A stretch of DNA of 64,000 bases from an uncultured virus (IMG/VR IMGVR_UViG_3300048930_001331) (Duplodnaviria; Heunggongvirae; Uroviricota; Caudoviricetes): the IMG/VR virus record IMGVR_UViG_3300048930_001331; one strand, given 5' to 3'. Below are positions 5,621-24,647 of the stretch, in pieces; the first letter of the stretch is position 1; each line of letters starts with the position of its first letter. The notes beneath the pieces were generated by a model, which searched no databases, was not told the DNA's origin, and saw nothing but the letters and a program-made list of their open reading frames with translations. A program made the translations under genes and the position numbers.

Positions 5621-6661
5621 TTACGCCGCGTAGCGGACGATCACGCGGCCTGAGCCGCCAGTACCGCCCGCGGTGTTGTTGCCCCCGCCACCGCCGCCAC
5701 TGCCAGTATTCGCGGTAGCGTTTGAGCCTGAGCCGCCACCGCCGTTGCCGGCGCCACCACCGCCGCCGGTTCCTTGTGTTCCAGAGTTGGTGCCACCACC
5801 ACCGCCACCAGCACGGGCCACTGAAGAGCCGGTGATCGAAGAAGACGAAGACCCGCCGCCGTTGCCGCAGACGCCGCCGGATGCGTTGCCGCCCACACCG
5901 GCAGAACCACCGCCGCCACCACCGCCGTTGGAGCCGCCGATCGAGGCAGTTCCGCCGCTGTTGCCTTGACCGCCGGTCCCGGAGCCGCCCGCCGCTGGCG
6001 ACCCGCCACCACGACCGCCGCCGCCGCCACTACCGCCGCCGCCGCCCGTAAGTGTCACGCCGCCGCCGTAGCCCCCGCCGACAGATGTGATGGAGTCAAA
6101 GACAGAATTTCCGCCCGCACCGCCGCTTCCGCCGCCGCTGCTACCTGCCGTCCCCGCTGCTCCTACCGTTACGGTGTAGGTCCCCGGCCCGAGCGTCAGT
6201 GAGCCGGTCTGATAACCGCCTGAGCCGCCGCCACCGCCGCCATCGCCGCCGCCACCGCCGCCGCCGCCAACTACGAGGTACTCGATTGTCCCGGTGCCGG
6301 ACGTGATCGTGAAAGATCCGGATGAGGTGAAGTCGTGAACCTTGTAGCCGGTGATGTTGGACGTTGTGCCGCCGGTCGCTGCGATAGGGACGACGCCGCC
6401 GAGAAGCGGCGTGAAGCCGGGCAGCATCGCGTAGATCGGGAAGCAATCGCCCTGGTGAAGGAAAGGGACGGCGCTTCGAATAAGACCCGGCCGTGCATCT
6501 TCGAGGTCTTGAAGGGCTTGCAAGACTCGGTCGACGGACGATGGGTCTAATTTGAGACGGAGGAGCTCGCGCTTTGCGAGGCTCTTCCACGCCTCCCCCG
6601 GCTGGATCAGTGCCGGCTTACCCGGCACCCAGATTTTCGGCGGGATATCAGCGGGGATCAC
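5621..6661 (-). CDS. Glycine-rich virion fibre/adhesin protein
   Basis: HDFTSSGSF..EYLVVGGGGGGG...GSGRVIVRY glycine-rich domain pattern. Confidence 0.8.
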   Translation of the reverse strand: MIPADIPPKIWVPGKPALIQPGEAWKSLAKRELLRLKLDPSSVDRVLQALQDLEDARPGLIRSAVPFLHQGDCFPIYAMLPGFTPLLGGVVPIAATGGTTSNITGYKVHDFTSSGSFTITSGTGTIEYLVVGGGGGGGGDGGGGGGSGGYQTGSLTLGPGTYTVTVGAAGTAGSSGGGSGGAGGNSVFDSITSVGGGYGGGVTLTGGGGGSGGGGGRGGGSPAAGGSGTGGQGNSGGTASIGGSNGGGGGGGSAGVGGNASGGVCGNGGGSSSSSITGSSVARAGGGGGGTNSGTQGTGGGGGAGNGGGGSGSNATANTGSGGGGGGNNTAGGTGGSGRVIVRYAA

Positions 6662-7200
6662 GGAGCCAGGACCACTTCCGGGTCTGCGCCGATCGCGTGC
6701 AGGACGGCGAGTATCTCTGGGTCATCGGCATAGACTTCAGGCAGATCGGGCGCACGCCAGCGCTCCTGCTGACGGATCGTCATGCCTGTGATTGCGGCGG
6801 CAAGCTGCTCGTCGGTCAGCCGGTCGATGATGACCGACTTGCTGATCTTGCGGCGCGGCTGCTCAACATCGATGACGTCGAAGAGTTCGATCACCTGCCC
6901 TCCCTCTTCGACGTACCGGGCTCCTCCAGTCGCTTGCTTGCCCGCTGGTACCGCGAATGGGATGACCGTCTTGAGGCCGTATCTATCGAGGTCCTCATCG
7001 GACCAAACGCCATCGGCCATGAGTTGATCGATCTTGCGAACGTCGAGTTTGGCCGTGATCGGATAGGGTGGGCACTCAATCTCCTGCGGCGGCCGGCCAT
7101 CGTGCCAGGTCGCGGTGTAGGTCGAGACCATCTCTTCGACGTCAATGACGCCGGAAACGGGCTCCCATGTATCTCCAACCTTTCTCGCGTATGTCATCAA
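6658..7200 (-). CDS. Tail-fibre-associated hypothetical protein (chaperone-like)
   Basis: Coupled between two fibre genes; acidic. Confidence 0.6.
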   Translation of the reverse strand: MMTYARKVGDTWEPVSGVIDVEEMVSTYTATWHDGRPPQEIECPPYPITAKLDVRKIDQLMADGVWSDEDLDRYGLKTVIPFAVPAGKQATGGARYVEEGGQVIELFDVIDVEQPRRKISKSVIIDRLTDEQLAAAITGMTIRQQERWRAPDLPEVYADDPEILAVLHAIGADPEVVLAP

Positions 7201-8624
7201 CCGATCCTTAGAATTGCATAGACGTAAACGGTCGTGCCGAGGCAGATGTAAGCGATACCGAGCGTCTGAGACGTTGTGATCGAGTACGGACCAGCCTCAA
7301 CGCCGGCCATGAGATTCCAGGCGGCGTTAAGCGTCAGCGTTCGCGTCGAAGTAGACGCCCCAAACCAGAGCACACCGCATTGCCCGCCCTTTGGATTTGA
7401 TGGAGCGCCCAGCGTGCGGTTACCAGCAAGATTCAGCTTCGCTGTCGTGCTGCCGCCGAAGTTGATCCCTGACGCGAGATTGACCGAGATGGTCGCGGCG
7501 TCGGTCAGAACTGCATTCAGTGCCGCCGCCCAAACCTGATCGACCACGAGACATCGGGCGGTGTCAGTTCCTGTGATGTATTCCGCCGCCGTGGCGAGTT
7601 CGGATACACCTTTGACCGAGGTTGTCGCGTCGACGCCCGCAAGAGTGGGGTTGCCCGAGACGCCATCGCCGTTTGTCACCGACAGGCCGGTCGATGCGGT
7701 TACGGCGATGGATCGTTGCGCCCAGGCATTTGATCCTGTCCGCACCGCAAAGCCGGTAGAGCCCAAAGCCTCAATGGCAGCAGCATCGTCAGAAAGATTG
7801 ATCGAGATATTGCCTGAGACGCCGTCGCCGTTCGTCGTCGTCAGGCCAGCATTCGGGCTCGTGATCGACCTCTGCGCCCACGTATCCGCGCCGATCCGAA
7901 CTGCGATGCCGGTGGACGCAAGAGCTTCGATGGCCGCGATATCGTTCGTGAGTGCGATGGTCGGATTGCCCGAAACGCCATTGCCATTTGTGACGCTGAT
8001 GCCGGCCGCCGGACCAGTAAGCGTTCTGGAGGCGTATGTCCCGTCAGCGGTCCTGGCGACCAACCCGTTTGCACTGAGGGCTGCCAGGCCAGTGAGTTCG
8101 TCGCTGGACGCCTGCTTTCCGGCCAGCGCCGTCGTCATCGTCGCCGCGAAATTCGCGTCGTCTCCGAGAGCGGCGGCCAACTCGTCGAGTGTGTCGAGTA
8201 CGCCTGGCGCTGAGTTGACCAGAGCGGCAATCTGAGAGGCGATGTACGCCTTGGTGGACTGCTGGCTCGGCGCCTTGGTCGCATCGTTGGATGCGAAGCT
8301 ATCCTCGTCGATCAGCGCCGCGAATCCGGCGAGGTCAACGGAGTTTGGGGTCAGTAGAACGAGCGGATTGCTGGTGAAGTTGATCTTCGAGCCGGTCGAC
8401 GACGCGACAATCGTCGTGCGGGCGAGCACGCCGGTGCCGGAATTATACGCCCCGTATCCGATCTCCCATTGAGTGCGCGCCGCGTCCTGTGCGCGATAGC
8501 TATAGACCGCTCCATTGACCAGATTCCCCGACATGGCTCGAAAGCCAACGACGGGGGTGCCGTCTGAAAAATTGCTGGTGCCGGCGCTGCCCGCGGTAAA
8601 CCAGATGCCATCAGCGAACGCCAT
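7197..8624 (-). CDS. Tail fibre protein
   Basis: WEIGYG..LARTT N-terminal domain; APGVLDTLDELAAALGDD motif; three NG(D/N)GVSGN repeats. Confidence 0.8.
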   Translation of the reverse strand: MAFADGIWFTAGSAGTSNFSDGTPVVGFRAMSGNLVNGAVYSYRAQDAARTQWEIGYGAYNSGTGVLARTTIVASSTGSKINFTSNPLVLLTPNSVDLAGFAALIDEDSFASNDATKAPSQQSTKAYIASQIAALVNSAPGVLDTLDELAAALGDDANFAATMTTALAGKQASSDELTGLAALSANGLVARTADGTYASRTLTGPAAGISVTNGNGVSGNPTIALTNDIAAIEALASTGIAVRIGADTWAQRSITSPNAGLTTTNGDGVSGNISINLSDDAAAIEALGSTGFAVRTGSNAWAQRSIAVTASTGLSVTNGDGVSGNPTLAGVDATTSVKGVSELATAAEYITGTDTARCLVVDQVWAAALNAVLTDAATISVNLASGINFGGSTTAKLNLAGNRTLGAPSNPKGGQCGVLWFGASTSTRTLTLNAAWNLMAGVEAGPYSITTSQTLGIAYICLGTTVYVYAILRIG

Positions 8625-8627
8625 CGA

Positions 8628-11600
8628 TCATGCATCCTTTCGGTAGATGGGTATCCAGTCGCCGCCGCTCTTGCGCCACCCATCCGTGACCAGTCGCCAT
8701 GTGCCACCGAGCTTCCCGTGGGCGGTCGGGACGAGCCATGCGCCGCCGTATTTTGCGAAGATCAGATCGATATCGAGCGATAGTCCGATCGAGCTGAAGA
8801 CATGCGGTCCGAAGCTGAGGTCAGATGCCTGCAGCACCTGCGCTTGCGACAGCGGCGGCGCTCCGAGTCCATAGGCACCGAACGAGAGAGGCGTTGCCGC
8901 AAGGCTATGTGCTTGAGACAGCGGCGGCGAGCTGAGAGAATACGAGCCGACACTCAGTCCAGTCGCCGAGAGCAGCCTGATCAGCTTTGCGGCAGGCGAC
9001 CCCAGGACGGGCGAGCCAATCACCATTGCGTTTGCGATCAGATTTCTGATCACCGTCATGGCCGGTGACGGCAACGTCGGCGTCGTCTGCAAGCCGCTCG
9101 CCGTTAGCTTGTGCACCTGCGACAATGCTGGCGCCGCCAGCGACGGCGCGCCGCTCGAGAGCGCGTTCGCAGCCACGAGCGACACGATGAAAGCTGACGG
9201 CGTCCCGAGGGTGTGCGGGCTGGCGGTGAGGTTGCTCGCGCCAAGAACATGCGCTTGCGCCATGGCTGGAGAGCCAAGCACCGGCGTCGTCGTGATCGGC
9301 ACCGCGGTGAACTTATGGACCTGCGAAAGCGCTCCTGTGCCTATGGTCGGCTGGCTGATCGGACCAAGCGTGACGCTGTGTATTTTGATCTGACCGCTCG
9401 CGGCAGAATCAAAATCAAACCTGATCCGCGTGATCGTGGAGTCGACCCAATCCGTGCCCCCGGTGTTGAGCACGCGCATGTCGAGTTCGATGACAACACG
9501 CTCGCCCACCGTCTCAAAAGCGGCAGGGATCGTCTTTCGATATGAGCCAGAATAGCTGTGCCCGGCCGTCGTATAGTAGAGGCTACCATCCCAACCGCCT
9601 ATCGATCGGGCCTGGGTCCGAGTCGCCTCGATACGAATAATCGGATACGCCGATCCCGATATGCTGATGTTCGGGCTGTAGAGCTGCGGGTCAGATTGCG
9701 TCTGGGTGAAGATCGCGCCGTCCTCGTCGGCAACGAGGGTGTTGGTGCCTGTGGTCGCCCACCCGGCCAGGGTGTTCAGGAAGGCGTAATTCAGATTGGG
9801 GGTGACGAAGCTGATCGGGAACGCGACAAGCTTGTGCACCTGATTCAGCGCGGGACTTGGCAGAACCGGCGTTACCGTAATCCCATCAGCGGTCGCGATC
9901 GTGACGATATTGATGTCAGGGACATCCAGCGTCGGCTCGTCGAGGATCAGGCTGTCAGCCTGAAGCAACCGGATGAGGGTAAAGCCCGGCGAACCGAGGG
10001 TGTGCATAGCCGCAGTCAGGTTGCCGGCCGTCAGCTTGTGAACTTGCGCCAGCGCCGGAGTCGCGAGCGCCGGCGCGCTTCCCGACAGCGCCGCCGCAGT
10101 AAGCTGATGCGTGATCGATAAGGTCGGAGACCCGAGAGACGGCGCTCCTGCTGATAGGTCGTCCGCCGAAAGGATGTAGCCGATGCCGCTGATCGCATCG
10201 CCGCCCAGCGGAAGCGAGGCGAGAGGTGCGAAGCCGCCGATCGGCGCGCCCATCGGTATCGCGTCAAACGGCACCGAGACCGTGAGAGCCGGCGTGTCCA
10301 AGACCGGCGCGCCAGCCGACAGCGCGCTCGCAGTCAGGGGCTGGATGTAGCTGAAGGACACCGGACCCAGAACGGGAGGTCCGATAGTCGGGGCGTTCGC
10401 CGTCAGCGCATGGATTTGCGCCAGCGTCGGGTTGCCGAGCGTGGGGGCTCCGGCCGAAATCTCGGTCGCCACGAGATTATATGCGAACTCCCAGCCGGTA
10501 TTGTTCCCACTCGAAACCGAACCGGTGCCTGGCGCCCACGTCGCGCCGCCGGTCGCGTTTGAGTCCTTGACGTCGAGGTATGCCCCGGTGACGGTGCCAG
10601 ACGCCTTCGACAAGGTGTGCTGCACACCGTCTTCTGTCGACCGAATGGCAATCGGGTTGGAGGCGTTGCCAGTGAGCGTCACCGAGCCGGTGAAAGTCTG
10701 CGTGACCCCCGACTCAAACTGCGCGGTGCGTGTGCCATTGTCGCTTCTGGGCGATATCGTGAAGGCGCCGAAGCTGTTCGCACCAAAAATGGATAGCGCA
10801 CCAGAGCCATTCCCAGCCCACGTGAATGACGGATAAGTCCTGCCACCGCCGGAGAACACCTTGGCGGTCGCGCTGTTATTGGTCAGCGTGATCGCGGCGG
10901 TGCCGGCGTTGAAGGTCAACCCCGTGATCGTCGTGAGGTCCCATACTGTCGCGGTGCCGCTCAGCGACCATGCCCCGGACCCCATCGTGAGGGTTCTGGT
11001 ATTTGTGTTGCTGCTCTCGAAGGAGCCCGCGCTGACATTGAACCCATTCGCATTGAAACTGCCGCGCGTGAGCGTGATTTTGCGCGCGCCGATATTCAGG
11101 TTGTCCGCAAGCGTCCAGCCGCCGCCGTCACCGTCGAAGGTGAAAGGCCGGTTGACCGTGATCCCGTTGGTCGTGATGGTCTTGCCGGTCGATTGCGCGG
11201 TAAGGATGAAAGCTCCGTTACCATCAGCAACAGACATACCGCTTGAGAATGTCAGGTTGCCGCGGACGGAGGCGTCTCCGTTGGCCGCCGATATCGAGCC
11301 TCCAAAACCAGTGAAATCCAGGTTGGCGCAGTCGATGCCATTGAGCGTCACAACGCCGGTGCCGGCGGACACCTTGACGTCGCCGACGACAAGTCCGCCG
11401 AGCGAGATGATCCGTGCGTTTGAGCCGGAGCCGTTGGCCTCTAAGAGGCCGGCCGCGCCGCTGAATGTCAGGTTCGTCGTCGTCGAAAGATTGATGACCG
11501 TCGAGATCGAGTGCGCCTTGATGGCGCCAGCGCCCATAGTGATGGAGCGGACGTTGCTGTTCGATGACGAGAACGTGCCACACTCGATGGTATAGCCATT

Positions 11601-12413
11601 CAGATCGAGACCACCCGCGCTATGGACAATAGCGCGCGCCGTGTCCCCGTCCTGGCTCACGACCAGGTTCGACTGAAGCTGATATGTCCCGCTGCCGCTG
11701 AAAGATACGGGGCGGTTTAGCTTCCCTCCAGCACTGATCGTGTGGGAAGCCGATCCATTGAACGCGATCGAATTTGTACCGCCCGTCCAAGCCACGCCGC
11801 TAGGTGATGTGAAGCTGCCATAGAGCGTGAGGTTCCCCAGACCTACGGTTCCGGCAAAGCCGGTGAGATCAAGGTTCCTTATAGCGGTGCTTGAGAACGT
11901 GAAGGTTCCTGTGCCCGCTGAGACTTTGACGTTCAGGGCACTGTTGCCAACGCCCAAAGTGCGGCTCGCGCTGCCGCTATATGAGAGATCGAGATAGTCG
12001 AAGTTTTCCGGCGAAACGACGAGGGGAAGCCCGATGGTTCCGGAGCCGGTCAGCTCCAGGATTGCGCCAGCGAGAGTGCTCTGGACGTTCCATGACGACG
12101 AAGCAGCAATGTTCTCGGCCGTGAGCTTGAAGCCCCTGAGATCGATTCCACGAACCGCGCCAGAGCCAGTAATCACCCCAAGGACGGTCAGGTTGGCCGC
12201 CATGACGTGAGGTAGCGTAGATCCCGAGATCGAAAGGGACGCGATAGTGATCGCGCTATTGACCGTCGTCGTACCGGCACCCGAGTTGGCATCGAACACG
12301 ACGTCGTCGCCAGAGCCAGGCACCGACGCCCCGCCCGATCCACCCGAAGAGGTGGACCAGCGCGCGGTGTCGGTCCAGTTGCCCGTGCCACCAACCCAAT
12401 AGCGAGTCGCCAT
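8628..12413 (-). CDS. Large fibre/spike protein (beta-solenoid-like N-half, Pro-spaced repeats)
   Basis: MATRYWVGGTGNW start; G/S/T/N-rich repeats; repeated PxLGxPxLxQxH units. Confidence 0.8.
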   Translation of the reverse strand: MATRYWVGGTGNWTDTARWSTSSGGSGGASVPGSGDDVVFDANSGAGTTTVNSAITIASLSISGSTLPHVMAANLTVLGVITGSGAVRGIDLRGFKLTAENIAASSSWNVQSTLAGAILELTGSGTIGLPLVVSPENFDYLDLSYSGSASRTLGVGNSALNVKVSAGTGTFTFSSTAIRNLDLTGFAGTVGLGNLTLYGSFTSPSGVAWTGGTNSIAFNGSASHTISAGGKLNRPVSFSGSGTYQLQSNLVVSQDGDTARAIVHSAGGLDLNGYTIECGTFSSSNSNVRSITMGAGAIKAHSISTVINLSTTTNLTFSGAAGLLEANGSGSNARIISLGGLVVGDVKVSAGTGVVTLNGIDCANLDFTGFGGSISAANGDASVRGNLTFSSGMSVADGNGAFILTAQSTGKTITTNGITVNRPFTFDGDGGGWTLADNLNIGARKITLTRGSFNANGFNVSAGSFESSNTNTRTLTMGSGAWSLSGTATVWDLTTITGLTFNAGTAAITLTNNSATAKVFSGGGRTYPSFTWAGNGSGALSIFGANSFGAFTISPRSDNGTRTAQFESGVTQTFTGSVTLTGNASNPIAIRSTEDGVQHTLSKASGTVTGAYLDVKDSNATGGATWAPGTGSVSSGNNTGWEFAYNLVATEISAGAPTLGNPTLAQIHALTANAPTIGPPVLGPVSFSYIQPLTASALSAGAPVLDTPALTVSVPFDAIPMGAPIGGFAPLASLPLGGDAISGIGYILSADDLSAGAPSLGSPTLSITHQLTAAALSGSAPALATPALAQVHKLTAGNLTAAMHTLGSPGFTLIRLLQADSLILDEPTLDVPDINIVTIATADGITVTPVLPSPALNQVHKLVAFPISFVTPNLNYAFLNTLAGWATTGTNTLVADEDGAIFTQTQSDPQLYSPNISISGSAYPIIRIEATRTQARSIGGWDGSLYYTTAGHSYSGSYRKTIPAAFETVGERVVIELDMRVLNTGGTDWVDSTITRIRFDFDSAASGQIKIHSVTLGPISQPTIGTGALSQVHKFTAVPITTTPVLGSPAMAQAHVLGASNLTASPHTLGTPSAFIVSLVAANALSSGAPSLAAPALSQVHKLTASGLQTTPTLPSPAMTVIRNLIANAMVIGSPVLGSPAAKLIRLLSATGLSVGSYSLSSPPLSQAHSLAATPLSFGAYGLGAPPLSQAQVLQASDLSFGPHVFSSIGLSLDIDLIFAKYGGAWLVPTAHGKLGGTWRLVTDGWRKSGGDWIPIYRKDA

Positions 12414-12431
12414 CGATCAGGTCTCTTCAGA

Positions 12432-12815
12432 TCACGACGGCGCCGGGATGCCGACGTCGAACGACGGCAGCGAGAAGGCGTTGCCGTTGGTCACAGCTTG
12501 TGACGACGAAAGTGAGTTGGCGGCCAGAAGCCGCGAGTTCGTCACTTCGCTCACAGCCCAATGCGTAGCGGTGCCGGTCGCGGTTACAGCACCATCCGTG
12601 ATGGCCGTGGACGCAACCTTTCGGCCGGATGGCGTCCGGTCAGCCGGCGCGCCGAATGCAGAGCCGGACGCGCCGTGGTCCTTGTTGCCGAGCGAATAGG
12701 TCGACGTCGCTTGCGTGTATGTCGCCGGCTCGGCCGAGCAGATGTCGATACGGTCAGCTTCCGTATCGAGAACATTCAGACCAAGGTCCAAGACCCGTGG
12801 ATTCAGGTACGACAT
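12432..12815 (-). CDS. Virion structural protein (fibre-associated)
   Basis: DGAVTATGTATHWA motif; GGAG SD; tail context. Confidence 0.65.
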   Translation of the reverse strand: MSYLNPRVLDLGLNVLDTEADRIDICSAEPATYTQATSTYSLGNKDHGASGSAFGAPADRTPSGRKVASTAITDGAVTATGTATHWAVSEVTNSRLLAANSLSSSQAVTNGNAFSLPSFDVGIPAPS

Positions 12816-12827
12816 TGATCCAGCTCC

Positions 12828-13196
12828 TTACTTTGCCGCCAGGGTGACGGCGGCAGACATGGCTGCGTCTTCGGCCTCGAAAGGCTCGCCATGCAGTTGC
12901 CACCTGTTGTCTTTCCAGATGTAGAGGTAGTAGACGCGAGCGTCGGAGAGCCAATCGACGTAATCCATCGGCTTGCCCAGCTCGATCCGCTTTCCGAACG
13001 AGTCGATCGCGTAACGCACCTTCTGCTCGCCGTTCACGGTCTCTTCGATCGGAGCGTGATAGTGCGAAGCCGTGACTTCGTTCGACAGCAACTCCTCGGT
13101 CGCCACAGCCTTGCGCCGCACATGCCCCTGCTCGACGCGGACTTTGGACTTGCCCTCGATATCCGTGATGGTGTCGCTGACTTTCTTGATCTGCAT
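12828..13196 (-). CDS. Hypothetical protein
   Basis: GAGGA SD; in-operon ORF. Confidence 0.6.
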   Translation of the reverse strand: MQIKKVSDTITDIEGKSKVRVEQGHVRRKAVATEELLSNEVTASHYHAPIEETVNGEQKVRYAIDSFGKRIELGKPMDYVDWLSDARVYYLYIWKDNRWQLHGEPFEAEDAAMSAAVTLAAK

Positions 13197-13212
13197 GCTG
13201 ATCCTCTTGAAA

Positions 13213-13956
13213 TTACGGCGCGACTTTGAACCAGAGATCGCCGTCTACGCCGCCTGACGGGTTGCTCTCACTGACGGTGATGGCGTGAATGCCGAGCGCA
13301 TCGAGGACCTGCTGCACGGTCGGCAGCGGGTACCAGGTCCAGTTCGCGTTCGAGTTCGGTGGAGTCGGTAGCGCGTTGCCGACGTTGCCATTCGCGTTTG
13401 ACACGAACAGGTAATTCCCGTTCTGCACCATGTCGTTCTGCGCGTAGGTGGTGACGCCGCTGTAGTTGCCGCGCGGCTTCCAGATCACGCCGACTGTGAC
13501 GACCGGTTCGAGAACGCCGTTGCGCCACTGATAGATCGTGCGTGTCACCGCATCGACGAACAGCGAGTTGTTCTGGACGAGCGACCAATCGATGTCGTCT
13601 GCAGTGTTGCCGACGAGGCCTTGGTTCTGCTCAAGGAACGCGTTGAACCGCGCGTAGACCGCCGCCTGCGTTGCGCCGTTCGCGATAGCTGGGCCGTCGA
13701 TCAGCTCGTAAGCAACATTCGTGAGCGTTTCGCCATTGAACGGCGACACGAGCGGAAGCTCGAGGTTTTCGTAGATGCCACGCGGATCAACCTCCGCGAC
13801 TGTACCGACACGGATTGGAGCAGCGTTGTCTGGCACCGCCCATATCTGTGATCCGGCACGATCCCGGCCGCCCCATGCCGTGCCGGTGCCGGAAACGATG
13901 CTCTCGCCGGAGACGACAGAGATCGTCCCTGTGGTGTAGGCAAACCGCTCGGTCAT
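13213..13956 (-). CDS. Tail fibre/adaptor protein
   Basis: YTTGTISV..VSGTGTAW N-terminus; WKPRGNYSGVTTYAQND module; PSGGVDGDLWF end. Confidence 0.7.
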   Translation of the reverse strand: MTERFAYTTGTISVVSGESIVSGTGTAWGGRDRAGSQIWAVPDNAAPIRVGTVAEVDPRGIYENLELPLVSPFNGETLTNVAYELIDGPAIANGATQAAVYARFNAFLEQNQGLVGNTADDIDWSLVQNNSLFVDAVTRTIYQWRNGVLEPVVTVGVIWKPRGNYSGVTTYAQNDMVQNGNYLFVSNANGNVGNALPTPPNSNANWTWYPLPTVQQVLDALGIHAITVSESNPSGGVDGDLWFKVAP

Positions 13957-14366: not shown

Positions 14367-14533
14367 TCTTCGGGCTCATTCTGGATGGGGAGTTCGATCA
14401 GGACTTGGTCCTGTGAGAGATCGAGAGCTTCAGAACCTTGGTCGCGCGCTCTCTTGAGGAATCGGCGCTCATCGCGCAGACGCTGCGCCTCAGCGTCACG
14501 ACGACGCTGCTCTGCCGGATGTCGGTTGTTCAA
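14363..14533 (-). CDS. Small charged hypothetical protein
   Basis: TTG start overlapping the stop of 14530..15159; stop overlaps the next ATG. Confidence 0.4.
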   Translation of the reverse strand: MNNRHPAEQRRRDAEAQRLRDERRFLKRARDQGSEALDLSQDQVLIELPIQNEPEE

Positions 14534-15159
14534 AGCTGGTTTCTCGGCGTCAGCAGCCGGCCGCGAAATCCGCTGAGCGACCAAGAGTTGGTGCTGCTCG
14601 GCGTGGCCAGTATGTTTCCGAACGTGACGCGGATCTGCCACGTGTAGGTATGGACGCCTGGGGTTGGAGTTGGCTCCCACCACCGAAACGCATCGCCGAT
14701 CATGACGTCTGAATTGACCGGGCCGGTGAAGCCGCCGGCGTAAGGGAAGCCAGGAGCTGAGCTGGCGTCCCATCCGGGCGCTGGCCATTCGGAGGTCGTC
14801 ACATCCTTCAGCATCCGGACGTATGCGCGAAACTCGGCTAGTCCCGAATGCGTGAGCACAACGGTCAGAACGCCCGTCGTGACCGATATGTCGATGAAGT
14901 AGTTTCTCGCGTCAGTCGTCAGTGTCCACGACAGGATGTCGATCCATCCGGAGTCGTAAACCGTATTGACGTTCGTGGCGCCGATCGCGCTGGCCTGAAC
15001 CTTTGCTTCGGTTCCAATCACGCTTCCGGGCAAGATCACATTCCGGAAGCGAGACTGCCCATCGACGACCTCGAAGACTGGTATTGGATCGCCGGAGGAT
15101 TGCTGGGCGTAGAGCTGTACCTGCGATTTACCGCCGAGGGCCTGGAGTGATCGGCTCAC
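14530..15159 (-). CDS. Free-standing tail-tip C-terminal domain cassette 2
   Basis: (M)SRSLQALGGKSQVQLYAQ...YDSGWID...PGVHTYTWQIR...PRNQL, parallel to the tip protein C-terminus; GTG start inferred. Confidence 0.8.
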   Translation of the reverse strand: MSRSLQALGGKSQVQLYAQQSSGDPIPVFEVVDGQSRFRNVILPGSVIGTEAKVQASAIGATNVNTVYDSGWIDILSWTLTTDARNYFIDISVTTGVLTVVLTHSGLAEFRAYVRMLKDVTTSEWPAPGWDASSAPGFPYAGGFTGPVNSDVMIGDAFRWWEPTPTPGVHTYTWQIRVTFGNILATPSSTNSWSLSGFRGRLLTPRNQL

Positions 15160-15793
15160 CGAGGCGGTCTTGCCACGACCTAACAATCCGCTGTCTCGCC
15201 CCAGCTTGGTCGAGAGTCGTGAGTTCGAGAAAGCCGCCGACGATGTGATGCGATCCGCTGCCGAACGGCAGTTCGGCGCGCGATCGTCGCATGGCTTCGA
15301 CGTAATCCACACCATGCCGCTCTGCCTTGAAGTCTTCTGGGTCCGCTGGCGCAGCGAAGCCTGCGAGCGCCGACGAATCCGGCGTTGGAGCGCCAAATAC
15401 CGGAGCGCTGATGCGCTCAAGCCGATGTCTGATCTGGTCTTGATGCAGGTCGTGACCCGCTAGGAAGAAAACCTCTGGGCCGCGTCGGTAGCAGCAGACC
15501 GCGATCTCGTAGTGTCGCGAGCGATCACCGAGAGTCGTCTCGGCCACGCGCTCGCATTCCATCAGAGCGGTCGGCAAGCGTGAGATCAGTTCAGAAGCGC
15601 TCATAGACCGCGTCACGGCTGAAACAAGATTGCCGATCAGACTCTCGCCTCTGACTGTGACTGCAGCCCTTCCATCCTTGGATATGGCCACCTTCGATTT
15701 GACCCGGACCAGACGTGCCTGCCGGTCAAGAACGGCCGCGTCGGTCAATAGCTCGACCCGATGAGCCTTCAGGATGCACAGATACGCGCTCAT
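15128..15793 (-). CDS. Proteasome-beta/Ntn-hydrolase-like protein
   Basis: After Met removal: Ser1, Asp17, Lys33, Gly48; late IVGGFLELTTL strand; ATGA-coupled to cassette 1. Confidence 0.65.
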   Translation of the reverse strand: MSAYLCILKAHRVELLTDAAVLDRQARLVRVKSKVAISKDGRAAVTVRGESLIGNLVSAVTRSMSASELISRLPTALMECERVAETTLGDRSRHYEIAVCCYRRGPEVFFLAGHDLHQDQIRHRLERISAPVFGAPTPDSSALAGFAAPADPEDFKAERHGVDYVEAMRRSRAELPFGSGSHHIVGGFLELTTLDQAGARQRIVRSWQDRLGEPITPGPRR

Positions 15794-16392
15794 ACTTGGT
15801 TCTTCGGGTAGAGGACGCGCAGTTTCAGACCATCCTTCAGGTCGACGATATCCGCCCCCCCAGAGCCGTTGGTCACGAGAAACTTGACCTGCCATTTGTA
15901 GGTGTAGGTGCCAGGAGATGGCGGGGTGTCGGAGAAGTCGAGCGTCTGGAACAGATAGCCGCCTGTCAGCGACACGCCTGTCGGCCACGCGAAAAACGGC
16001 ACTCCGTCGAATGCGATCGGCGGATACACCTGAGAGCCGTTGCGCAGCAGCCTCGCCAACAATCGCCCGCCTGGATTTGTCGCCGTGATCGTTATGTCGA
16101 CAAGGCCGATGCGGATTGAATGATCCACGAAGCCCGTAGTTGCGTCCGCAAGGACGTCGACTGACACTGCGTCGATCCAACCGGAATCATAGTTCCCAGA
16201 CGAATATGTGAGGTTGCGGGTAATCCGCGCCCCGGTCGTCTGGAGCGCGCCCACGACCGAGTCGGGAAGGAAAAGAGCGCCTTGGACGCGCGCTTGGCCG
16301 CCCGATACCACGAATACCGGCTCGGGCTCTCCAATGGCCTTCTGGGCGTAAATCTGGACTTGCGACTTGCCCCCGAGCGCCTGCGTGGTCAT
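15790..16392 (-). CDS. Free-standing tail-tip C-terminal domain cassette 1
   Basis: MTTQALGGKSQVQIYAQKA...YDSGWIDAV...PGTYTYKWQVK...YPKNQV; ATG overlaps the tip gene stop. Confidence 0.88.
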   Translation of the reverse strand: MTTQALGGKSQVQIYAQKAIGEPEPVFVVSGGQARVQGALFLPDSVVGALQTTGARITRNLTYSSGNYDSGWIDAVSVDVLADATTGFVDHSIRIGLVDITITATNPGGRLLARLLRNGSQVYPPIAFDGVPFFAWPTGVSLTGGYLFQTLDFSDTPPSPGTYTYKWQVKFLVTNGSGGADIVDLKDGLKLRVLYPKNQV

Positions 16393-19300
16393 GCCTGGAT
16401 TTGATTCTTCGGATAGATCGCGCGCACGAAGAGGCCGGCGAAGCTGAAGTTGTCGCCTGACCCGCTGCCCCCAGAAGCGACGCGCATCCGGACCTGCCAC
16501 TTGTAAGTGTACGTCCCGCTCGACGGAGGAAGATCCACGAAATCATATGGCGCGATACTGTAGACGGACGTCGCGAGCGCGCCGCTGGTGCCAAAAATCG
16601 GTATGCCGTTCGAGAAGGCAGACGGCGGATGAATTTGAGTGCCGTTCCGCAGAAGGCGGATCGAGGCCGTCATTGCAGCGCTGAAGCTGAAGTCCACGTT
16701 GCCGACCTGCATTGAAAGGTCGACGCAATCAGTCGTCGCATCGACGATCGCATCCACTTCGACTGCGTCGATCCACCCCGAGTCGTACACCCCTCCGGAA
16801 TACGTGATGCCGCTTCGCGCAACCACCCCACCCTGCTCTTTTGCAGCGCCCAGCACGTCACGCGGAAACAAGACGCTGCCATCAAGCCGGACAGCATTGT
16901 CCGCCACGGTGAAGACCGGGACCGGGTCGCCGACCGCCTTCTGCGCATAGATTTGCACTTGAGACTTGCCACCGAGCGCGGTGACGCCGGCGTCAATCAC
17001 GATGCCGGCCTGGGCGAATGTGTCGGAAGAGGACGCCCTCGCCTGAAGCTCAATACGAGACGAGGCACCTCCCGGCGCAGCGCCGGTTGTGATTCTGAAC
17101 AACCCCTTTGCCGACAGGTCGTCGTAGTTCGATTCAGCGTAAGTCTGAAGCAAGGCCAGAGAATTCTCGACCGTCGCTACCGTGACCTGCAGCTCGTTGA
17201 TAGTCGAGTTGATCTGACCGCTCAGCTCCGCAGCGACTGTCTGCTCCAACTGCGCAATTGCTTCGTTCGCGCTCGTGAACGCAGCTTCAACAGTTTCGAC
17301 ATACGCTTCGATGTCTGTACCGAACGCAGCCTCGACGGTCTGCTTGAAGAGAGCGAACGCCTCGTCAGCATCAGCAATCGCCACCATGGCTTGCTGGACC
17401 GCAGCGGCGTTCTGGCCATATCGCTGTCCGACGCCGATCCGGATCTGCCCCAGAGACTCGATGATCCCGGAGACCTGATTATTCAGCGCCTGCGATACTT
17501 GCGCGATCTGCTGCTGAAAATCTTCCGAGCGCTGGAAAATCTGCTCCTGGAACTGTTGGATTTGAGCCCTCAACGCGAGGTCGAGAGCCCGGTCATTGAC
17601 GATCTGCGGCGGCAGCTCGGGCAACGGCACATCGGAGACGAAAGCGTAGGTCCATGGACCGGGCCGCTGCCCGATCGCAGCGACCCGTAGTGTCACGTCC
17701 TGCGACTCGATCGATACCGCCAGTCTCGTCCCGACACTGTCATGCACCGGGGTCCAGGACGCAGCGTTGGGCGCGCTATCGGCGTTTTCGTCGTAGCTGA
17801 TCTCAGCGATATAGCGCTGCGCGCCCGGCGACGGCTGCCAGCCCGCCTGCAATTCGACACCCATGGTGACGCGCTCGGCCTTGGCATACAGGCCGGTAAT
17901 GACCGGTGCATCAGGGATGGGCGCGAAGATGTCCGGTGGGGTGTAGGGCGCCGGGGTCGTTTCGGTTTCATCGGCGGAATGGACGCGCTGGTCGTCATTG
18001 ACGCACACAACGTCAACGAATTTGCCGTTCGGTCGCGCGCCGACGACAAGCCCATCCCACAACCTCGTGCCGGCACCGATCAGGAGAGAGACGTGCGCGG
18101 GCTCGGACCGGCCACCTGGGATCAGGCCCTCAAGCTCGCCGTGCGCTGCCTCAACGATGAATCTATCGGCGGCATCGAGCCTGATTTGCCGCTCTGTCGG
18201 AAAGCTATGGACAAGGCAAGGCCCCCACTCGCGCCCAAGCCGATCTCGGATAATGACATGATACTCAGCCTCACTTCCGGGATCGAGGTCTCGATCAACG
18301 GTAATGACCGGAGTGGAGACCGAGGGATCAAACGACTCGAGCGCCGCAATTCTCGTCAGGGCGTCGTACAGCGGGTCGTGAAGCAGGATAGGATCGCCTC
18401 GAACGAGGAGTTTGCCCTCGCTCTCTACCGTGAATGATCTGAACGACCTGCGGTAGGCGTTATCCGCCGTCCTGTAGATGCCCTCCCGCCACGCGTGGCT
18501 TCGGTCCGAAATGCCGAACATCTCACGCTCTACGGGTTCGGCATCGCCGACGCTAGAGATGATGCAGTCGACGGTTCGCTCGCTCCAGACCTCGGCGTCA
18601 ATGTAGCGCGCGATCGTGTGATCCGGCGTCTCCTCGTCGAACCATATGTCCTTTCGCTTGATGGAGCCGCGGACGATGTTTCGCGGAGTAAAGACGGCCC
18701 GGCGGACCTGCTTCGGCTCATCTCGCACAAAGCCGATCCTGCCACCGAGGCGCACCACTGAAGACCGACCACAGCTCAGGACTGCGTTGATGGCCTGCAT
18801 GGCCACCCACTTGCGATCAAACACGGCGTCAAAGTTGTCGCCGCGGCCAGCCCAAATATCGTGGTAGGCTTCGAGCCAGTCGAGGTCGACGTCAGCATCC
18901 GCGATGCCGAGACCGTAATCGGAGTCGGTCAATAGGTCAGCGGCCGCCCATGCGATGGACCGAGTCGACGCCTTTTCAGTCCATTCACCGTCTGCACGAC
19001 CGCGGAGCACTCGCGTCCCGGTGAAGAAATACTGACCGGCCGAGCTTTGGCTCAGCTGCTCGCTCGCCTTGATTTTAGTCGCTATCAGCGTCACGCCTTG
19101 AGGCGTCGGAAAGCCGCTCAAATAGCCGCGAAGCCCAGCCCACAGCACGCGATTGACCGTGACGGAGTCGCTGTTGTTGTCAGTCAGGTCCGGCGTGGTC
19201 GACGACAGCTTTACCTCGTAGCGCCCCGCCGCGACGTCCACTCGCTCACTGAACCTCAGTGGCGTCTTGGTCCGGTTCTGGTACGTCTTCTCGAACAGCG

Positions 19301-20330
19301 TGACGAACGATCCGATACCGATCCCGCTATTGTCGACGGGTCTGTATTCCGCCTTGACGTGACGGGATGCGTCTCTGGGCTTGCCCTGATCGTCAAGTCC
19401 GAAGAGGCCCGAGGGAAACACGAGATCGATGGCGATTGCCGTAACCGTCGTGTTCGTGGGGTTGACCACGTATGGGCCGAGGGTATCGGGAGGCGACGGC
19501 AAAACCTGACCCGAGACAGCATCGGAGACCGATACGTTGATCGGAAACAAGGTGATGTCGGTACCCGGCGGAGCAACCTGAATCTCGAGCCCTGCGAACG
19601 CGTCGGACGCCCCGATGCCCTGTTGCCACGCGACCGTGTCACCGATCTCCAGCTTGGAGATGACGGCCTCACCGCAGGTGAAGCAGTGGAGCTGATACAG
19701 ATACTGATCGTTTCCAACGAACTCCGCGTAGGGGCGGGAAGCGTATGGTGGCGGATAGCGCACGCGCCCGTACACCACCGGCACAGGCTCCAGAGGCATG
19801 GCGCGGTTGCCGCTCGCGGAGACCGAGTAGACGGTCTCTCCCGAAACGGATTCCTTTGCCTGGCTGACCGGGACCTGCGGCGGCGGGAATAGAACATTGA
19901 GCGCCAACGACCCGCCGGCAATGAAGGCGACGGAAGCGACGGACGCCATGAAGGTGCCGGCACCGAAGATCAGGCCGGCCGCGTATGGAGCCGCGATGGC
20001 GAGACCGATGGCGGCAACAAGTCCAACGATGCGCTTCCCAGACCCGCCACCAAGACCACCGCGACCCGGCACGGACACAAAGGCAAGCGTTTCACCGTGG
20101 CGAACAACACGAACATGCCACTGACCGCGCAGGACCGGAGCCGCCTCGACATCGCGACCGCACATCACAGCAATGGTCGGGAGACGAAACTTCAGATCGC
20201 ACTCGGCTATCGCTTCCGCGATCGTCATAGGGCGCGCAAGTTCGATCTTGCGCATATCGGTCGGCACCGGGCCGGTCATGGTCACGACGACCGGCGCGCC
20301 GCTCAGATCGTGGGGTGCGACATGCTTCAT
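16389..20330 (-). CDS. Central tail tip / host-specificity protein (lambda J-like, N-terminal gpI-like region fused)
   Basis: 1313 aa after NlpC/P60; VPVVYGR, SIAWAAADLLT, VRDEPK..FTPRNI motifs; coiled coil before the last domain. Confidence 0.9.
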   Translation of the reverse strand: MKHVAPHDLSGAPVVVTMTGPVPTDMRKIELARPMTIAEAIAECDLKFRLPTIAVMCGRDVEAAPVLRGQWHVRVVRHGETLAFVSVPGRGGLGGGSGKRIVGLVAAIGLAIAAPYAAGLIFGAGTFMASVASVAFIAGGSLALNVLFPPPQVPVSQAKESVSGETVYSVSASGNRAMPLEPVPVVYGRVRYPPPYASRPYAEFVGNDQYLYQLHCFTCGEAVISKLEIGDTVAWQQGIGASDAFAGLEIQVAPPGTDITLFPINVSVSDAVSGQVLPSPPDTLGPYVVNPTNTTVTAIAIDLVFPSGLFGLDDQGKPRDASRHVKAEYRPVDNSGIGIGSFVTLFEKTYQNRTKTPLRFSERVDVAAGRYEVKLSSTTPDLTDNNSDSVTVNRVLWAGLRGYLSGFPTPQGVTLIATKIKASEQLSQSSAGQYFFTGTRVLRGRADGEWTEKASTRSIAWAAADLLTDSDYGLGIADADVDLDWLEAYHDIWAGRGDNFDAVFDRKWVAMQAINAVLSCGRSSVVRLGGRIGFVRDEPKQVRRAVFTPRNIVRGSIKRKDIWFDEETPDHTIARYIDAEVWSERTVDCIISSVGDAEPVEREMFGISDRSHAWREGIYRTADNAYRRSFRSFTVESEGKLLVRGDPILLHDPLYDALTRIAALESFDPSVSTPVITVDRDLDPGSEAEYHVIIRDRLGREWGPCLVHSFPTERQIRLDAADRFIVEAAHGELEGLIPGGRSEPAHVSLLIGAGTRLWDGLVVGARPNGKFVDVVCVNDDQRVHSADETETTPAPYTPPDIFAPIPDAPVITGLYAKAERVTMGVELQAGWQPSPGAQRYIAEISYDENADSAPNAASWTPVHDSVGTRLAVSIESQDVTLRVAAIGQRPGPWTYAFVSDVPLPELPPQIVNDRALDLALRAQIQQFQEQIFQRSEDFQQQIAQVSQALNNQVSGIIESLGQIRIGVGQRYGQNAAAVQQAMVAIADADEAFALFKQTVEAAFGTDIEAYVETVEAAFTSANEAIAQLEQTVAAELSGQINSTINELQVTVATVENSLALLQTYAESNYDDLSAKGLFRITTGAAPGGASSRIELQARASSSDTFAQAGIVIDAGVTALGGKSQVQIYAQKAVGDPVPVFTVADNAVRLDGSVLFPRDVLGAAKEQGGVVARSGITYSGGVYDSGWIDAVEVDAIVDATTDCVDLSMQVGNVDFSFSAAMTASIRLLRNGTQIHPPSAFSNGIPIFGTSGALATSVYSIAPYDFVDLPPSSGTYTYKWQVRMRVASGGSGSGDNFSFAGLFVRAIYPKNQIQA

Positions 20331-21303: not shown

Positions 21304-21689
21304 CAGGTTGCTCGCGTGTAGTCCACGACATCGATAGTCCAACTGACGGCGGTTCGATCAGGCGGGACATCGGATGTGGTGTATTCGCCGCTCACCATCG
21401 AGCAGACCCGCTCTGCATACTCGTCAGCGGTTTGGGTCCAGACCGGCATCGTGAACGGGAGAGTTCCGTCGACGAGCGTGTTCCGGACCCAGAGCGCGAA
21501 CGCCTCGAACTCGTCCTTCGACCAGTCGACGAATGTGAATTGGATGGTTGCGATATTCTTCGTGGATGACCGCCGCGCCCTGCGATTGCCATCCTCGAAT
21601 TCGGTGCGGTGAGGCGCTCGATATGGAGCGCTCTGACGGAATGTGCTGCGCTGCACCTTGTACGGAACACCCTCCGGCCACTCTTCCAT
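21303..21689 (-). CDS. Distal tail protein-like
   Basis: Directly after the tape measure; WP..RTEFEDG..R.R; LVDGTLPFTMP. Confidence 0.75.
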   Translation of the reverse strand: MEEWPEGVPYKVQRSTFRQSAPYRAPHRTEFEDGNRRARRSSTKNIATIQFTFVDWSKDEFEAFALWVRNTLVDGTLPFTMPVWTQTADEYAERVCSMVSGEYTTSDVPPDRTAVSWTIDVVDYTRAT

Positions 21690-24313
21690 CAGACCACCCT
21701 GCGCAGACCGTAGGTTCGCTCAAGGATGGCTGCCAGCGGGCCGCCTCCAGCGACATCTCTGGCATTCGCGTCAACGACGAAGCGGGCGAAGTTCACCCCA
21801 CCTTCCTGACGCGTTCCGGCTGGCTTGGCCGGTACGTGCTGTCCATTCTCGTCGACCAGCTCGATCTTCAGATTGACCTCTGAAGAACCACCGTGCATCT
21901 CGACACCAAGGCGCCCGCCAGGACCGCGCGTCAGCGGCATGATGGCTTCCGGCTTCCCGTTCTCGACCGCCGTTCCGATGTTGCCGCCCGCCATCGGGAA
22001 GGCCACGGGGCGATCGATGACGCCACCCAGAGAATGCGGAATGATCCGGCCGCCCTGGAACACGTTGCCATTGAGGCTTGCCACCATTCCGCCGGGCATC
22101 CACGGATTCCCGATGCCCGAATAGGTCGAGATGCCAGCACCGCCACCGCCAAAGACACTGCCGAGCCCACTGACAAGGCTGGTCACGCTCTTGGAGAGCG
22201 CCAATTCCGTCAGCTTGTTGCCAAGCTGCGTCAGGGCGTTGATGCCGGCTTGCAGGAATGCATCCCAGCCCTTCTGGCCTTGCTGCAGCCCTGAGATCGT
22301 GTCGCGGTACAGCGAGGTGCTGAAATCCACGGCCATGGCCTTGCCCTGGCGGAGGGTCTCGTTGAAACGGACCTGATTGGCGATGTAGCCGTTCATCTGG
22401 CTTCCATAGTCATCGCCATAGATCGCCCGGAGCCGCGCCGCGGTCGCCTGCTCGGTATCGGAACGGCCGAGCTGGCTGCGCTCGAATGCAAGATCGCTCG
22501 CGGCCTGAGACTCGGCAATCAGCTGCCGGCGGCGTGCGATCAGGTCATTCTCGCGAGACAAGCGCGCGTACTGCGCCTCGTCGAATTTGAGATTGTTGCG
22601 CTCGGCCTCGCGACGCAGGTCAGCGTAGAGCTGCCAGTTTGAGCGCAGGCGCTCGGTCTCGCCCACGGACTTGCCAATCACGGCGAGGTCGACCTCCGCC
22701 TGACCGGCCGCATCCTTGATGGCGAGCGCACGGTCGCGCGCTGAGTCAATGAGCTGCCGCTCTGCCTGCCCGCGCGCAAGAGCGGCTGCGGCCGCGACTT
22801 GATCGTTCTTCGCCTGCTCGGCGAACACCGTATTGGCCTGCCCGCCAAGCTGGATTCTCGTGCGGATCGCAGCCGCGGCAGCAAGCTCGCCGGGAGACCG
22901 CGCACCGAGCGCGGCTATGGCTGCGCGATCCGAGATAATGGCGGTCTCGGACGCGGAGCGGACGCCATTGAGCGCGTCGCGCTTACGATCCAGTGCCTGA
23001 GATACCTCGGCTTCGGAATTGGCCAACAGGCCGTTCTGCTGGAGGCGCTGACGCTCCTTCTCGATCAGGTCTATCTCGGCCTGAATCTGCTTGCGCATCG
23101 CCTCTTCCGGAAGCGACGTCCGAACAGCGTTGCCGACAGCGATGGAGGTGCGGTCCAGCGCCGCCTTCTCCTGCTCGCCTCGCACCCGGATCAATTTCTG
23201 CTCGAACTCGTCGAGCTTCCGTAGCGCCTGATCGGACACCATCTTCTCGTAGCGCTCGCCCAGAAGATTGGCCCAAGGCACACTCTCCTGCATGCGCTTC
23301 TTCTGCAGCTCGATCTCGGATTCGAGGGTTCGGCCGACGCTGGTCAGATCGGACATCTTCTGCCCGAGCTTGTCCCACGCATTACTGACGAGGTTGCCGG
23401 CGCCAGTGGCGACGACGGTGAAGAAGCTCTGCGTGCGCGTCATGTTCGCCAGCGCGGCATTCGTGGCGTCGATGACGGCGGCCTGGGCCTGGCTGCGCCG
23501 ACCGGAGTCTTCCTGAAGACGGATGGACTCGCGCATGCGATCGTTACCTATGCCGATCACATCATTGAGCTTGTCGAAGCCTGCCGTTGGGCTCTTGATT
23601 GAATCGCCCAACAGCTTCGCGGCATCCGCCCCATCGTAGCCGAGGCGCTGGACCATCATGGTGATGGTCGACAATAGAGGATCGATGCTGCGCTGCCCGA
23701 TCTTGCCAGTCGTCGCGAGTTCTGCCGCAAAGGCGCGCGCTTCGCGTACTGACAGCCCGAAGGTGGACGCAGCGGACTTGGCGATGTCGTTGATGCCTTG
23801 AACGCTTACGCCTGACGCCCTGCCGATGCCGTTGAGGCTGCGCTCCAGGTCCTGTTGCTGGCTGGCGTAAGACTGAAGCGACAGACCGAGCCCTACGAAC
23901 CCCGCCGCAACTCCGGCCGTGGCACCCTTGGCTGAAAACGCCCAAGCGGCGACGCTCTTCGCAAGGTTGCTGAAGAGCCCCGGCTGCATCTGGAACACCT
24001 GAAAGACCTGACCGCCCTGCTGGGTCAGGATCTGAAAGGGGCTCTGGCCCATCGCCAGTCCGGACAAAATATCGTTGAGCTGGAACGACAGGTTGGACAT
24101 CGCGCCCGACGTCCAGTCCACTCGCCGCCCAGCCTCCTGGGCGTCCTGGCCCATCCGGCGGAAACCACGACCGGCCGCGGAGCCGGACCGCTCGATACGA
24201 GTGCTCACCCGCTCAGCGGCCTCGCCATGCTCGACGAATCGATCCAGTTGCGTATTGGCGTCCTGGACTGGTCTACTGTCGATCCTGAGACGGAGGTCAG
24301 CGAGGTCGGTCAT
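21689..24313 (-). CDS. Tape measure protein
   Basis: MTDLADLRLRIDS; QLNDILSGLAMGQSPFQILTQQGGQ; long helical region; PEAIMPL near the end. Confidence 0.92.
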   Translation of the reverse strand: MTDLADLRLRIDSRPVQDANTQLDRFVEHGEAAERVSTRIERSGSAAGRGFRRMGQDAQEAGRRVDWTSGAMSNLSFQLNDILSGLAMGQSPFQILTQQGGQVFQVFQMQPGLFSNLAKSVAAWAFSAKGATAGVAAGFVGLGLSLQSYASQQQDLERSLNGIGRASGVSVQGINDIAKSAASTFGLSVREARAFAAELATTGKIGQRSIDPLLSTITMMVQRLGYDGADAAKLLGDSIKSPTAGFDKLNDVIGIGNDRMRESIRLQEDSGRRSQAQAAVIDATNAALANMTRTQSFFTVVATGAGNLVSNAWDKLGQKMSDLTSVGRTLESEIELQKKRMQESVPWANLLGERYEKMVSDQALRKLDEFEQKLIRVRGEQEKAALDRTSIAVGNAVRTSLPEEAMRKQIQAEIDLIEKERQRLQQNGLLANSEAEVSQALDRKRDALNGVRSASETAIISDRAAIAALGARSPGELAAAAAIRTRIQLGGQANTVFAEQAKNDQVAAAAALARGQAERQLIDSARDRALAIKDAAGQAEVDLAVIGKSVGETERLRSNWQLYADLRREAERNNLKFDEAQYARLSRENDLIARRRQLIAESQAASDLAFERSQLGRSDTEQATAARLRAIYGDDYGSQMNGYIANQVRFNETLRQGKAMAVDFSTSLYRDTISGLQQGQKGWDAFLQAGINALTQLGNKLTELALSKSVTSLVSGLGSVFGGGGAGISTYSGIGNPWMPGGMVASLNGNVFQGGRIIPHSLGGVIDRPVAFPMAGGNIGTAVENGKPEAIMPLTRGPGGRLGVEMHGGSSEVNLKIELVDENGQHVPAKPAGTRQEGGVNFARFVVDANARDVAGGGPLAAILERTYGLRRVV

Positions 24314-24647
24314 GAGGTTAGCCCTGATTTTCTTGATTTTGTCGACGCCAGCGCTCGCCCAGAGCCAGACAAAGGACGCTGAGGCGGCTATGCGGGAGCG
24401 CCTTCGCGATCCACAATCGGCCCGCTTCGAGGACCTGCGGGTGGTCCCAAACCCGGCCAAGCCCGGTGCCGAGCTGGTCTGCGGCTTCGTGAACGCCAAA
24501 GGTCAGGGCGGCGGATATCTGGGCAAAACCCCGTTCGTCTATGCGGCTCCGTCAGCCTATCTGGGCGGGAACTTCGACATGATTTCCGGTCCGCACGACA
24601 TGGACCGCATCCTGGCAAGCCGCATCAGCTCCGAGTTTTGCCCTTGA
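24312..24647 (+). CDS. Secreted/periplasmic moron protein
   Basis: Signal peptide MRLALIFLILSTPALA; LRDPQSARF..VCGFVNAK..GGYLG. Confidence 0.75.
   Translation: MRLALIFLILSTPALAQSQTKDAEAAMRERLRDPQSARFEDLRVVPNPAKPGAELVCGFVNAKGQGGGYLGKTPFVYAAPSAYLGGNFDMISGPHDMDRILASRISSEFCP

Follow-up and report, generated by a model that had tools for sequence, protein, structure and literature searches.

A proteasome-fold enzyme gene between free-standing copies of a prophage tail-tip receptor-binding end, and a peptide motif common to the three ends

Proteasome homologues and the phage tail tip

Shufflons, invertible tail-fibre cassettes and diversity-generating retroelements set alternative receptor-binding ends on one constant N-terminal part and switch between them at the DNA level. 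The module considered here corresponds, in gpJ of phage lambda, to the end of a beta-prism followed by a receptor-binding domain; there it is the end of one polypeptide (PMC11101478). The C-terminus of J is also a target of defence. Tai (PMC11364771) and, reportedly, Bil (bioRxiv 10.1101/2023.09.04.556158) act on the central tail fibre during assembly, with Tai found in satellites and prophages. Bil (E1/E2/Ubl) and Tai employ enzymes different from the one discussed below, or none, and represent interference from the host or satellite side rather than tip exchange.

Proteasome-like proteins were surveyed by Fuchs, Alva and Lupas in 2021 (PMC8665760). Of the 22 proteasome homologues described there, two are common in phages, and gene context proved uninformative on function. 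PPH, RPC, DPH and AAH of that survey are proteasome-like, phage-associated or proteobacterial, and are spread by phages. For chemistry the relevant comparison is Connectase, an archaeal enzyme of the same fold that recognizes KDPGA. Connectase engages its substrate by strand addition over about 15 residues, most of which lie on the C-terminal side of the cut (PMC7980362). The N-terminal part of the substrate is placed on Ser1 or Thr1, neither preceded by a propeptide, and is then passed to a chain with the same C-terminal tag; hydrolysis does not occur, and the swap of C-terminal parts is reversible.

The locus described here lies in a window of 64,000 bases, the first part of a 76,052-base IMG/VR provirus that is 86% complete. 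New at this locus is an enzyme gene that lies between two free-standing copies of J's receptor-binding end, with one motif common to all three ends. In the literature searched, which left most subscription journals outside, no report was found of a proteasome-like enzyme acting on phage tail proteins.

Organization of the tail-tip locus

Terminase, portal, capsid, tail tube, tape measure and J genes are all encoded on the minus strand. Among the GenBank phage records with the closest J relatives, 12 of 14 come from Rhizobium, Sinorhizobium, Mesorhizobium and Paracoccus, and an alphaproteobacterial host is therefore likely. The tape measure gene is full-length (21689..24499, minus strand; phrog_24 and phrog_1716). 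The tail-tip protein J (16389..20330, minus strand; phrog_31, phrog_469, PF24801 and PF13550) carries a fused gpI-like N-terminus, and its probable start at 20330 is placed by an ATGA overlap with the upstream gene.

Along the minus strand the order is J, cassette 1, enzyme, cassette 2. Cassette 1 (15790..16392, minus strand) is a free-standing copy of the last 200 residues of J, 51% identical to the J end. The enzyme gene (15128..15793, minus strand) encodes 221 residues. Cassette 2 (14530..15159, minus strand) is a second free-standing copy, 34–35% identical to the J end and to cassette 1, and its start is uncertain, either GTG at 15159 or TTG at 15186. ATGA overlaps join the J stop to the cassette 1 start and the cassette 1 stop to the enzyme start at 15793; the cassette 2 start falls within the last codons of the enzyme gene. 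The J-end module has exactly three matches in this genome. A Logan contig of 2246 bases covers 14862–17107 with zero differences to the window, and its run may be the source sample. Contigs from one DNA run show no joints, with the proviso that contigs drop rare variants.

By Atlas features the cassettes group with the Ig-like receptor-binding end of gpJ (PF12421 Ig_GpJ_C and PF09327; score 0.91). Their structure model is poor (pLDDT 60, with residues 1–22 below pLDDT 50), and its weak Foldseek matches include lambda gpJ (E 2e-4). Judged from sequence, the cassettes are the gpJ C-terminal receptor-binding module, comprising the beta-prism end and an Ig-like domain. Whereas lambda gpJ has this module at the end of one chain (PMC11101478), the two extra copies here form separate genes led by a common tag. 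Cassette relatives with DNA context were sought in IMG/VR, GTDB genomes, JGI metagenomes and GenBank phages, and no match was obtained. Beyond the cassettes, positions 5621–13956 hold more tail-fibre-like genes, including those for 1261-residue, 475-residue and glycine-rich 346-residue proteins; the 1261-residue protein has no Pfam or PHROG match.

The enzyme and its family

The start proposed for the enzyme in a sequence-only reading of this DNA, the ATG at 15793 instead of the start at 16180, is borne out by the family: of 149 aligned sequences, 140 have Met in that column. The extended frame that begins at 16180 was rejected. It overlaps a real gene in another frame, and its GC3 of 0.45 compares with 0.65 for the enzyme gene and 0.72–0.85 for the neighbouring genes, values that mark the extension as a shadow of the upstream gene. 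After removal of Met, Ser1, Asp17, Lys33 and Gly48 stand in the translation (15793–15128, minus strand) exactly where that reading had put them. Its match to proteasome spacing holds for the catalytic set, but the glycine lies one residue past proteasome Gly47. The strand VGGFLELTTL, which it took for the end of the protein, is not the C-terminus; one further strand and a W-x-D-x-x-G-x-x-I tail come after it. This tail is family-specific (W206 and D208 each in 147 of 149 sequences, G211 in 145). In the region 15128–15141 the enzyme stop lies inside the cassette 2 motif codons described below, and a +1 frameshift there would, speculatively, fuse enzyme to cassette.

An AlphaFold model built from 133 sequences has a pLDDT of 95.8 and a pTM of 0.91. 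All of the PDB matches listed by Foldseek for this model are proteasome subunits (best E 1.2e-9). VIA-align against 48,161 chains also places proteasome beta on top, with Z of 16–17.6, reaching 17.6 over 172 residues at an rmsd of 2.8; Anbu (15.3), HslV (13.1), BPH (12.3) and Connectase (9.2) follow. In a profile alignment the family falls in register with human beta-9 (E 0.07). The predicted fold is thus that of proteasome beta, as had been anticipated under the description 'proteasome-beta/HslV-like'. That description stands for the fold. By sequence its HslV part does not, as none of the 133 family members is matched by any model, HslV/PF00227 included, in Pfam at E <= 0.1 or NCBIfam at E <= 0.01. 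It is almost certain that the protein is an Ntn enzyme of proteasome fold whose catalytic set is intact. Ser1 would be freed by Met removal, and from the modelled fold and the residues we infer that it is active.

The 20S proteasome beta subunit, HslV, BPH and Anbu (PMC8665760) have in common with the enzyme model the alpha-beta-beta-alpha sandwich, Ser/Thr1-Asp17-Lys33, the oxyanion glycine and helices H1 and H2. The enzyme differs from them in a short H3, the W-x-D-x-x-G-x-x-I tail, the absence of a propeptide and its phage or satellite tail context, and its sequence identity in the structural matches is 7–16%. Anbu ends in a coiled-coil helix, H5, whereas the enzyme model has no helix past residue 170. 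PPH has about 140 residues and, like RPC, is without H2; the enzyme has 221 residues and an H2 of 28. Connectase is without H1 and H2, and two additional helices are inserted between its strands S3 and S4. The enzyme model is the opposite on both counts: helices are predicted at 51–62 and 66–93, and none between the strands at 27–31 and 35–37. By their structural definitions the modelled enzyme is therefore not PPH or RPC, Connectase or Anbu, the groups that this comparison covers. Its relation to Connectase, which shares with it the fold and Ser1 or Thr1 at an N-terminus free of a propeptide, is one of proposed functional analogy, not of membership.

An exhaustive search yields 415 homologous clusters at E <= 0.001, the best 150 of which are mostly 24–42% identical to the query. 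In an alignment of 149 sequences, the query included and two fragments (P0002 and P0003) left out, Ser occupies position 1 in 92 and Thr does so in 49, giving Ser/Thr in 141 of 149. Asp17 and Lys33 are each kept in 142 and Gly48 in 143. Conservation of Ser/Thr1, Asp17 and Lys33 is what the sequence-only reading had required of homologues. Arg168 (148), Gly185 (147) and Gly186 (142) are similarly conserved. Agreement so far beyond chance shows that the start and the catalytic residues are real.

The family is largely unannotated. No PADLOC model fits it. The profile phrog_13702, labelled terminase, matches 23 of 133 members, and one member, P0005, has no match to it at E <= 0.001. No match was found by tblastn among 50,697 GenBank phage records. 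GTDB genomes searched with a single relative gave none either, nor did IMG/VR when probed with the query or with alignment A5. The claim that such an enzyme is not a standard siphovirus tail component agrees with these searches. In the ESM Atlas, unnamed clusters are found at 0.96–0.98, together with one cluster at 0.95 that has PF00227 on 27% of its members. Two family members, P0138 and P0143, have C-terminal fusions; the partner is an internal-virion-protein domain (phrog_6651) or a repeat region of 260 residues that by eye resembles a tail-fibre beta-helix. In the contigs L022, L023 and L030 the match to the enzyme is divided between two frames; these are pseudogenes or assembly errors.

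Relatives at other loci

Homologues were placed in context at 21 loci with 23 enzyme genes; these loci were located by subgroup patterns and do not represent a random sample. Eight of the enzyme genes lie directly 3' of one that matches a tape-measure PHROG, and two lie directly 3' of a short J N-terminal fragment. Five follow a gpI/J-like fragment, recognized by alignment only, and two follow tail-like genes, recognized by eye (L024 and L028). One, at L008, lies after terminase and before a J fragment. The other five (L025, L026, L027, L029 and L030) are without a tail link or are cut. Among 18 mapped starts, 12 share an ATGA with the stop of the gene upstream. Integrase, terminase, portal or capsid genes are present in the longer loci, where no full tail module was seen; this fits satellites. 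What emerges from these gene neighbourhoods is a real family of proteasome-like enzymes, unannotated and with a link to the tail proteins of phages.

Two satellite-like elements (L008:8001-11879 and L020:4400-6642) have two enzyme genes each, interleaved with a tape-measure gene and a gpI/J N-terminal fragment of about 155 residues. The upstream genes in L017, L018, L019, L020 and L023 are gpI/J N-terminal fragments whose ends, at homologous positions, fall no more than a few residues apart, just past a hydrophobic helix. We take these fragments to be a ubiquitin-like domain plus plug helix, as in lambda gpI; they are possibly dominant-negative tail decoys or enzyme substrates. A C-terminal tag of 'GG plus strand' upstream of the homologues was considered and rejected. 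The pattern GG-x-[ILV]-x-hydrophobic occurs at 5 of 18 upstream C-termini, compared with 6 of 328 background frames, and for the most part marks where the gpI/J plug helix naturally ends in a single subgroup of related sequences.

The J receptor-binding cassette has no profile match in 27 loci, comprising the 21 homologue loci and 6 J controls. The arrangement of J, cassette and enzyme is seen once, in this prophage only. A test for duplicated 8-mer peptides between tail genes finds the motif of the window and nothing comparable in 17 homologue loci, where the matches are low-level or terminal-repeat ones and the two enzyme copies of L020. A blastp-short search, run with no positive control, finds no duplicated peptides in 7 homologue loci.

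A peptide motif shared by three chains

J, cassette 1 and cassette 2 have the peptide ALGGKSQVQ(I/L)YAQ in common. In J (ALGGKSQVQIYAQ; 16941..16979, minus strand) it comprises the turn and the next strand of a beta-prism hairpin, and J's own receptor-binding domain comes after it. In cassette 1 (16342..16380, minus strand) it follows Met and a three-residue leader. The copy in cassette 2 (15103..15141, minus strand) has one I-to-L change, and the TAA stop of the enzyme falls within its codons. In the cassettes the motif begins 3–5 residues past the start Met. A fourth copy comes from an independent assembly: the Logan protein P0180, encoded on a contig of 2651 bases and 33% identical overall, is a free cassette that starts M-T-motif. 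Over these four copies 11 of 12 columns are invariant, with about 15% invariant elsewhere and 6 in the best other stretch of 12 columns, the motif stretch itself having been picked after the fact.

Conservation here differs between peptide and DNA. Over 12 codons the three pairs of copies in the window have 7, 10 and 6 silent differences and 0, 1 and 1 non-silent ones. Their DNA is identical at 29, 25 and 28 of 36 bases and their peptides at 11–12 of 12 residues. Codon pairs for the same residue differ silently in 23 of 34 cases within the motif and in 110 of 182 outside it. These rates are alike, and the motif DNA is therefore no more alike than the rest. The codon data point to selection on the motif peptide, not on the DNA.

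Other J proteins show which part of the motif is unusual. At the matching place in all six J-type proteins compared, five aligned and one read from its frame, the hairpin turn is variable in length and sequence. The J of Paracoccus phage Shpa has S-Q-V in the strand after the turn. Conservation of the motif strand may thus be partly structural, while the turn residues, as far as these proteins indicate, are not normally conserved in J. In the free cassettes, according to a weak model, the ALGG turn has no hairpin partner in its own chain.

Two further observations concern neighbouring sequences. A weak echo of the motif, EGKSKVRV, with a DNA repeat match, lies at 13139–13159 near the start of the gene at 12828–13196 (122 residues); it was not picked up in a 6-of-13 peptide scan. 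In Shpa (KR072689.1; L013:796-4231) the annotated J stops at 4014 and J-like sequence goes on in another frame, a break that reflects a frameshift or a sequence error.

Possible functions of the enzyme

A Connectase-like reaction, in which the enzyme cuts J at the motif and joins alternative receptor-binding domains to it, is the favoured, though tentative, reading of this locus. The steps would be as follows. (i) The enzyme recognizes ALGGKSQVQ(I/L)YAQ. (ii) Ser1 attacks a bond that probably lies in the ALGG-K turn. (iii) The N-terminal part is held on the enzyme as a covalent intermediate. (iv) It is then passed, presumably in preference to hydrolysis, to another chain that starts with the rest of the motif. 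(v) Before trimerization of the tail tip, J's own receptor-binding end is replaced by the one from either cassette; presence of the full motif in J, cassette 1 and cassette 2 would make the exchange possible. (vi) If the joined chains are incorporated, one genome gives rise to virions with up to three tip kinds. By the logic proposed here, shared with Connectase (PMC7980362), a short recognition peptide would separate exchangeable protein parts that are encoded as several variants.

Connectase-like chemistry would explain why the tag is kept at the peptide level, why it lies at an exposed turn between a constant shaft and a variable tip, and why the cassettes carry ALGG leaders. An ATGA overlap couples cassette 1 to the enzyme gene, whose end runs into cassette 2. 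The 11 motif columns kept in four copies, P0180 included, the silent codon differences within the motif, the variable turn of other J proteins, the ties of the enzyme family to tail proteins and the precedent of Connectase, which has the same fold, also favour joining. Against it count the missing Connectase structural signature in the model (Z of 9.2, compared with 16–17.6 for proteasome beta), the single occurrence of the arrangement, with P0180 known apart from its gene context, the S-Q-V of an ordinary J strand, the lack of a comparable repeat in 17 homologue loci and the uncertain start of cassette 2. That the joining amounts to protein-level tip diversification, with a proteasome-fold transpeptidase exchanging the receptor-binding domain among three gene-encoded alternatives by means of a 12-residue tag, is somewhat unlikely. 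Unlike shufflons, invertible cassettes and diversity-generating retroelements, such a system would keep its shared element as a peptide, and no invertase or reverse transcriptase was found in the 86% complete record.

The same motif and gene coupling would also suit a motif-specific protease, one that cleaves both J and the leaders of the cassettes there but joins nothing. Trimmed domains could then exchange or co-assemble non-covalently in the trimeric beta-prism, or the J end could be shed in maturation. The fold, nearer to the hydrolytic proteasome beta and HslV than to Connectase and furnished with H1 and H2, speaks for hydrolysis. However, a cut J would presumably keep its receptor-binding end by strand contacts alone, and cassettes could begin at the cut site, yet all three known cassettes retain a leader and ALGG. 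Cutting as the sole activity seems distinctly improbable to us. If the protease were instead a general, HslV-like degradative one carried as a moron, the tail link would be incidental. Its fold and catalytic residues, the presence of PPH and AAH in phages (PMC8665760) and 28 structural matches in BFVD at E <= 0.001 agree with such a role, but at least 15 of 23 homologous genes lie directly after a gene, or part of a gene, for a tail protein, an ATGA overlap with the gene upstream is present at 12 of 18 mapped starts, and no HslV model matches any of 133 members. General degradation is very unlikely.

Enzyme and motif may also be unconnected. The motif would then be structural, a docking strand by which cassettes stack or co-trimerize with J, or a feature of decoy cassettes directed against host systems aimed at J's C-terminus. 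The enzyme, brought here by recombination, would act as it does in satellites, most likely on tube-lumen proteins (the tape measure or the gpI plug) or against competing phages. Most relatives do lie in capsid-gene, satellite-like elements after tape-measure genes or gpI/J fragments and have no cassette; S-Q-V is a normal J strand; the enzyme GC3 is slightly below that of its neighbours (0.65 against 0.72–0.74); and the central tail fibre is what Tai (PMC11364771) and, reportedly, Bil (bioRxiv 10.1101/2023.09.04.556158) target. Left unexplained are an invariant ALGGK turn in four copies that otherwise differ by 50–67%, and the position of the enzyme between cassettes with its stop within a motif. 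Nor does any PADLOC model fit the family. Such a passenger enzyme is somewhat unlikely. The last alternative makes the enzyme irrelevant to the cassettes, which would donate to J by DNA recombination at the motif. Phage recombinases tolerate sequence divergence, and the three paralogues have the same orientation and short patches of 76–88% DNA identity. Motif DNA, though, is identical at 25–29 of 36 bases only, compared with 11–12 of 12 peptide residues, and the cassettes have their own coupled starts. Neither a resolvase (PF00239) nor a reverse transcriptase (PF00078) was found in the 76 kb record, 86% complete, and its sole tyrosine recombinase is the integrase at 75.5 kb. Donation through DNA is very unlikely.

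Implications

The phage-borne enzyme family, which comprises at least 415 clusters, has ties to tail proteins. The J cassettes around the enzyme gene of this genome supply a candidate substrate, so that one peptide with three natural carriers accompanies one enzyme. If the enzyme only cuts, this would still be the first substrate for a phage proteasome homologue. If it joins, phages would switch receptor-binding domains with no change in DNA, and the enzyme and its tag would constitute a new sequence-specific protein ligase. Tip exchange, if true, would be a protein-level shufflon and would provide a second natural Connectase-type ligase, one whose biological purpose is clear and whose recognition tag is new. 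A swap of tips would then bear on which bacteria the phage can infect.
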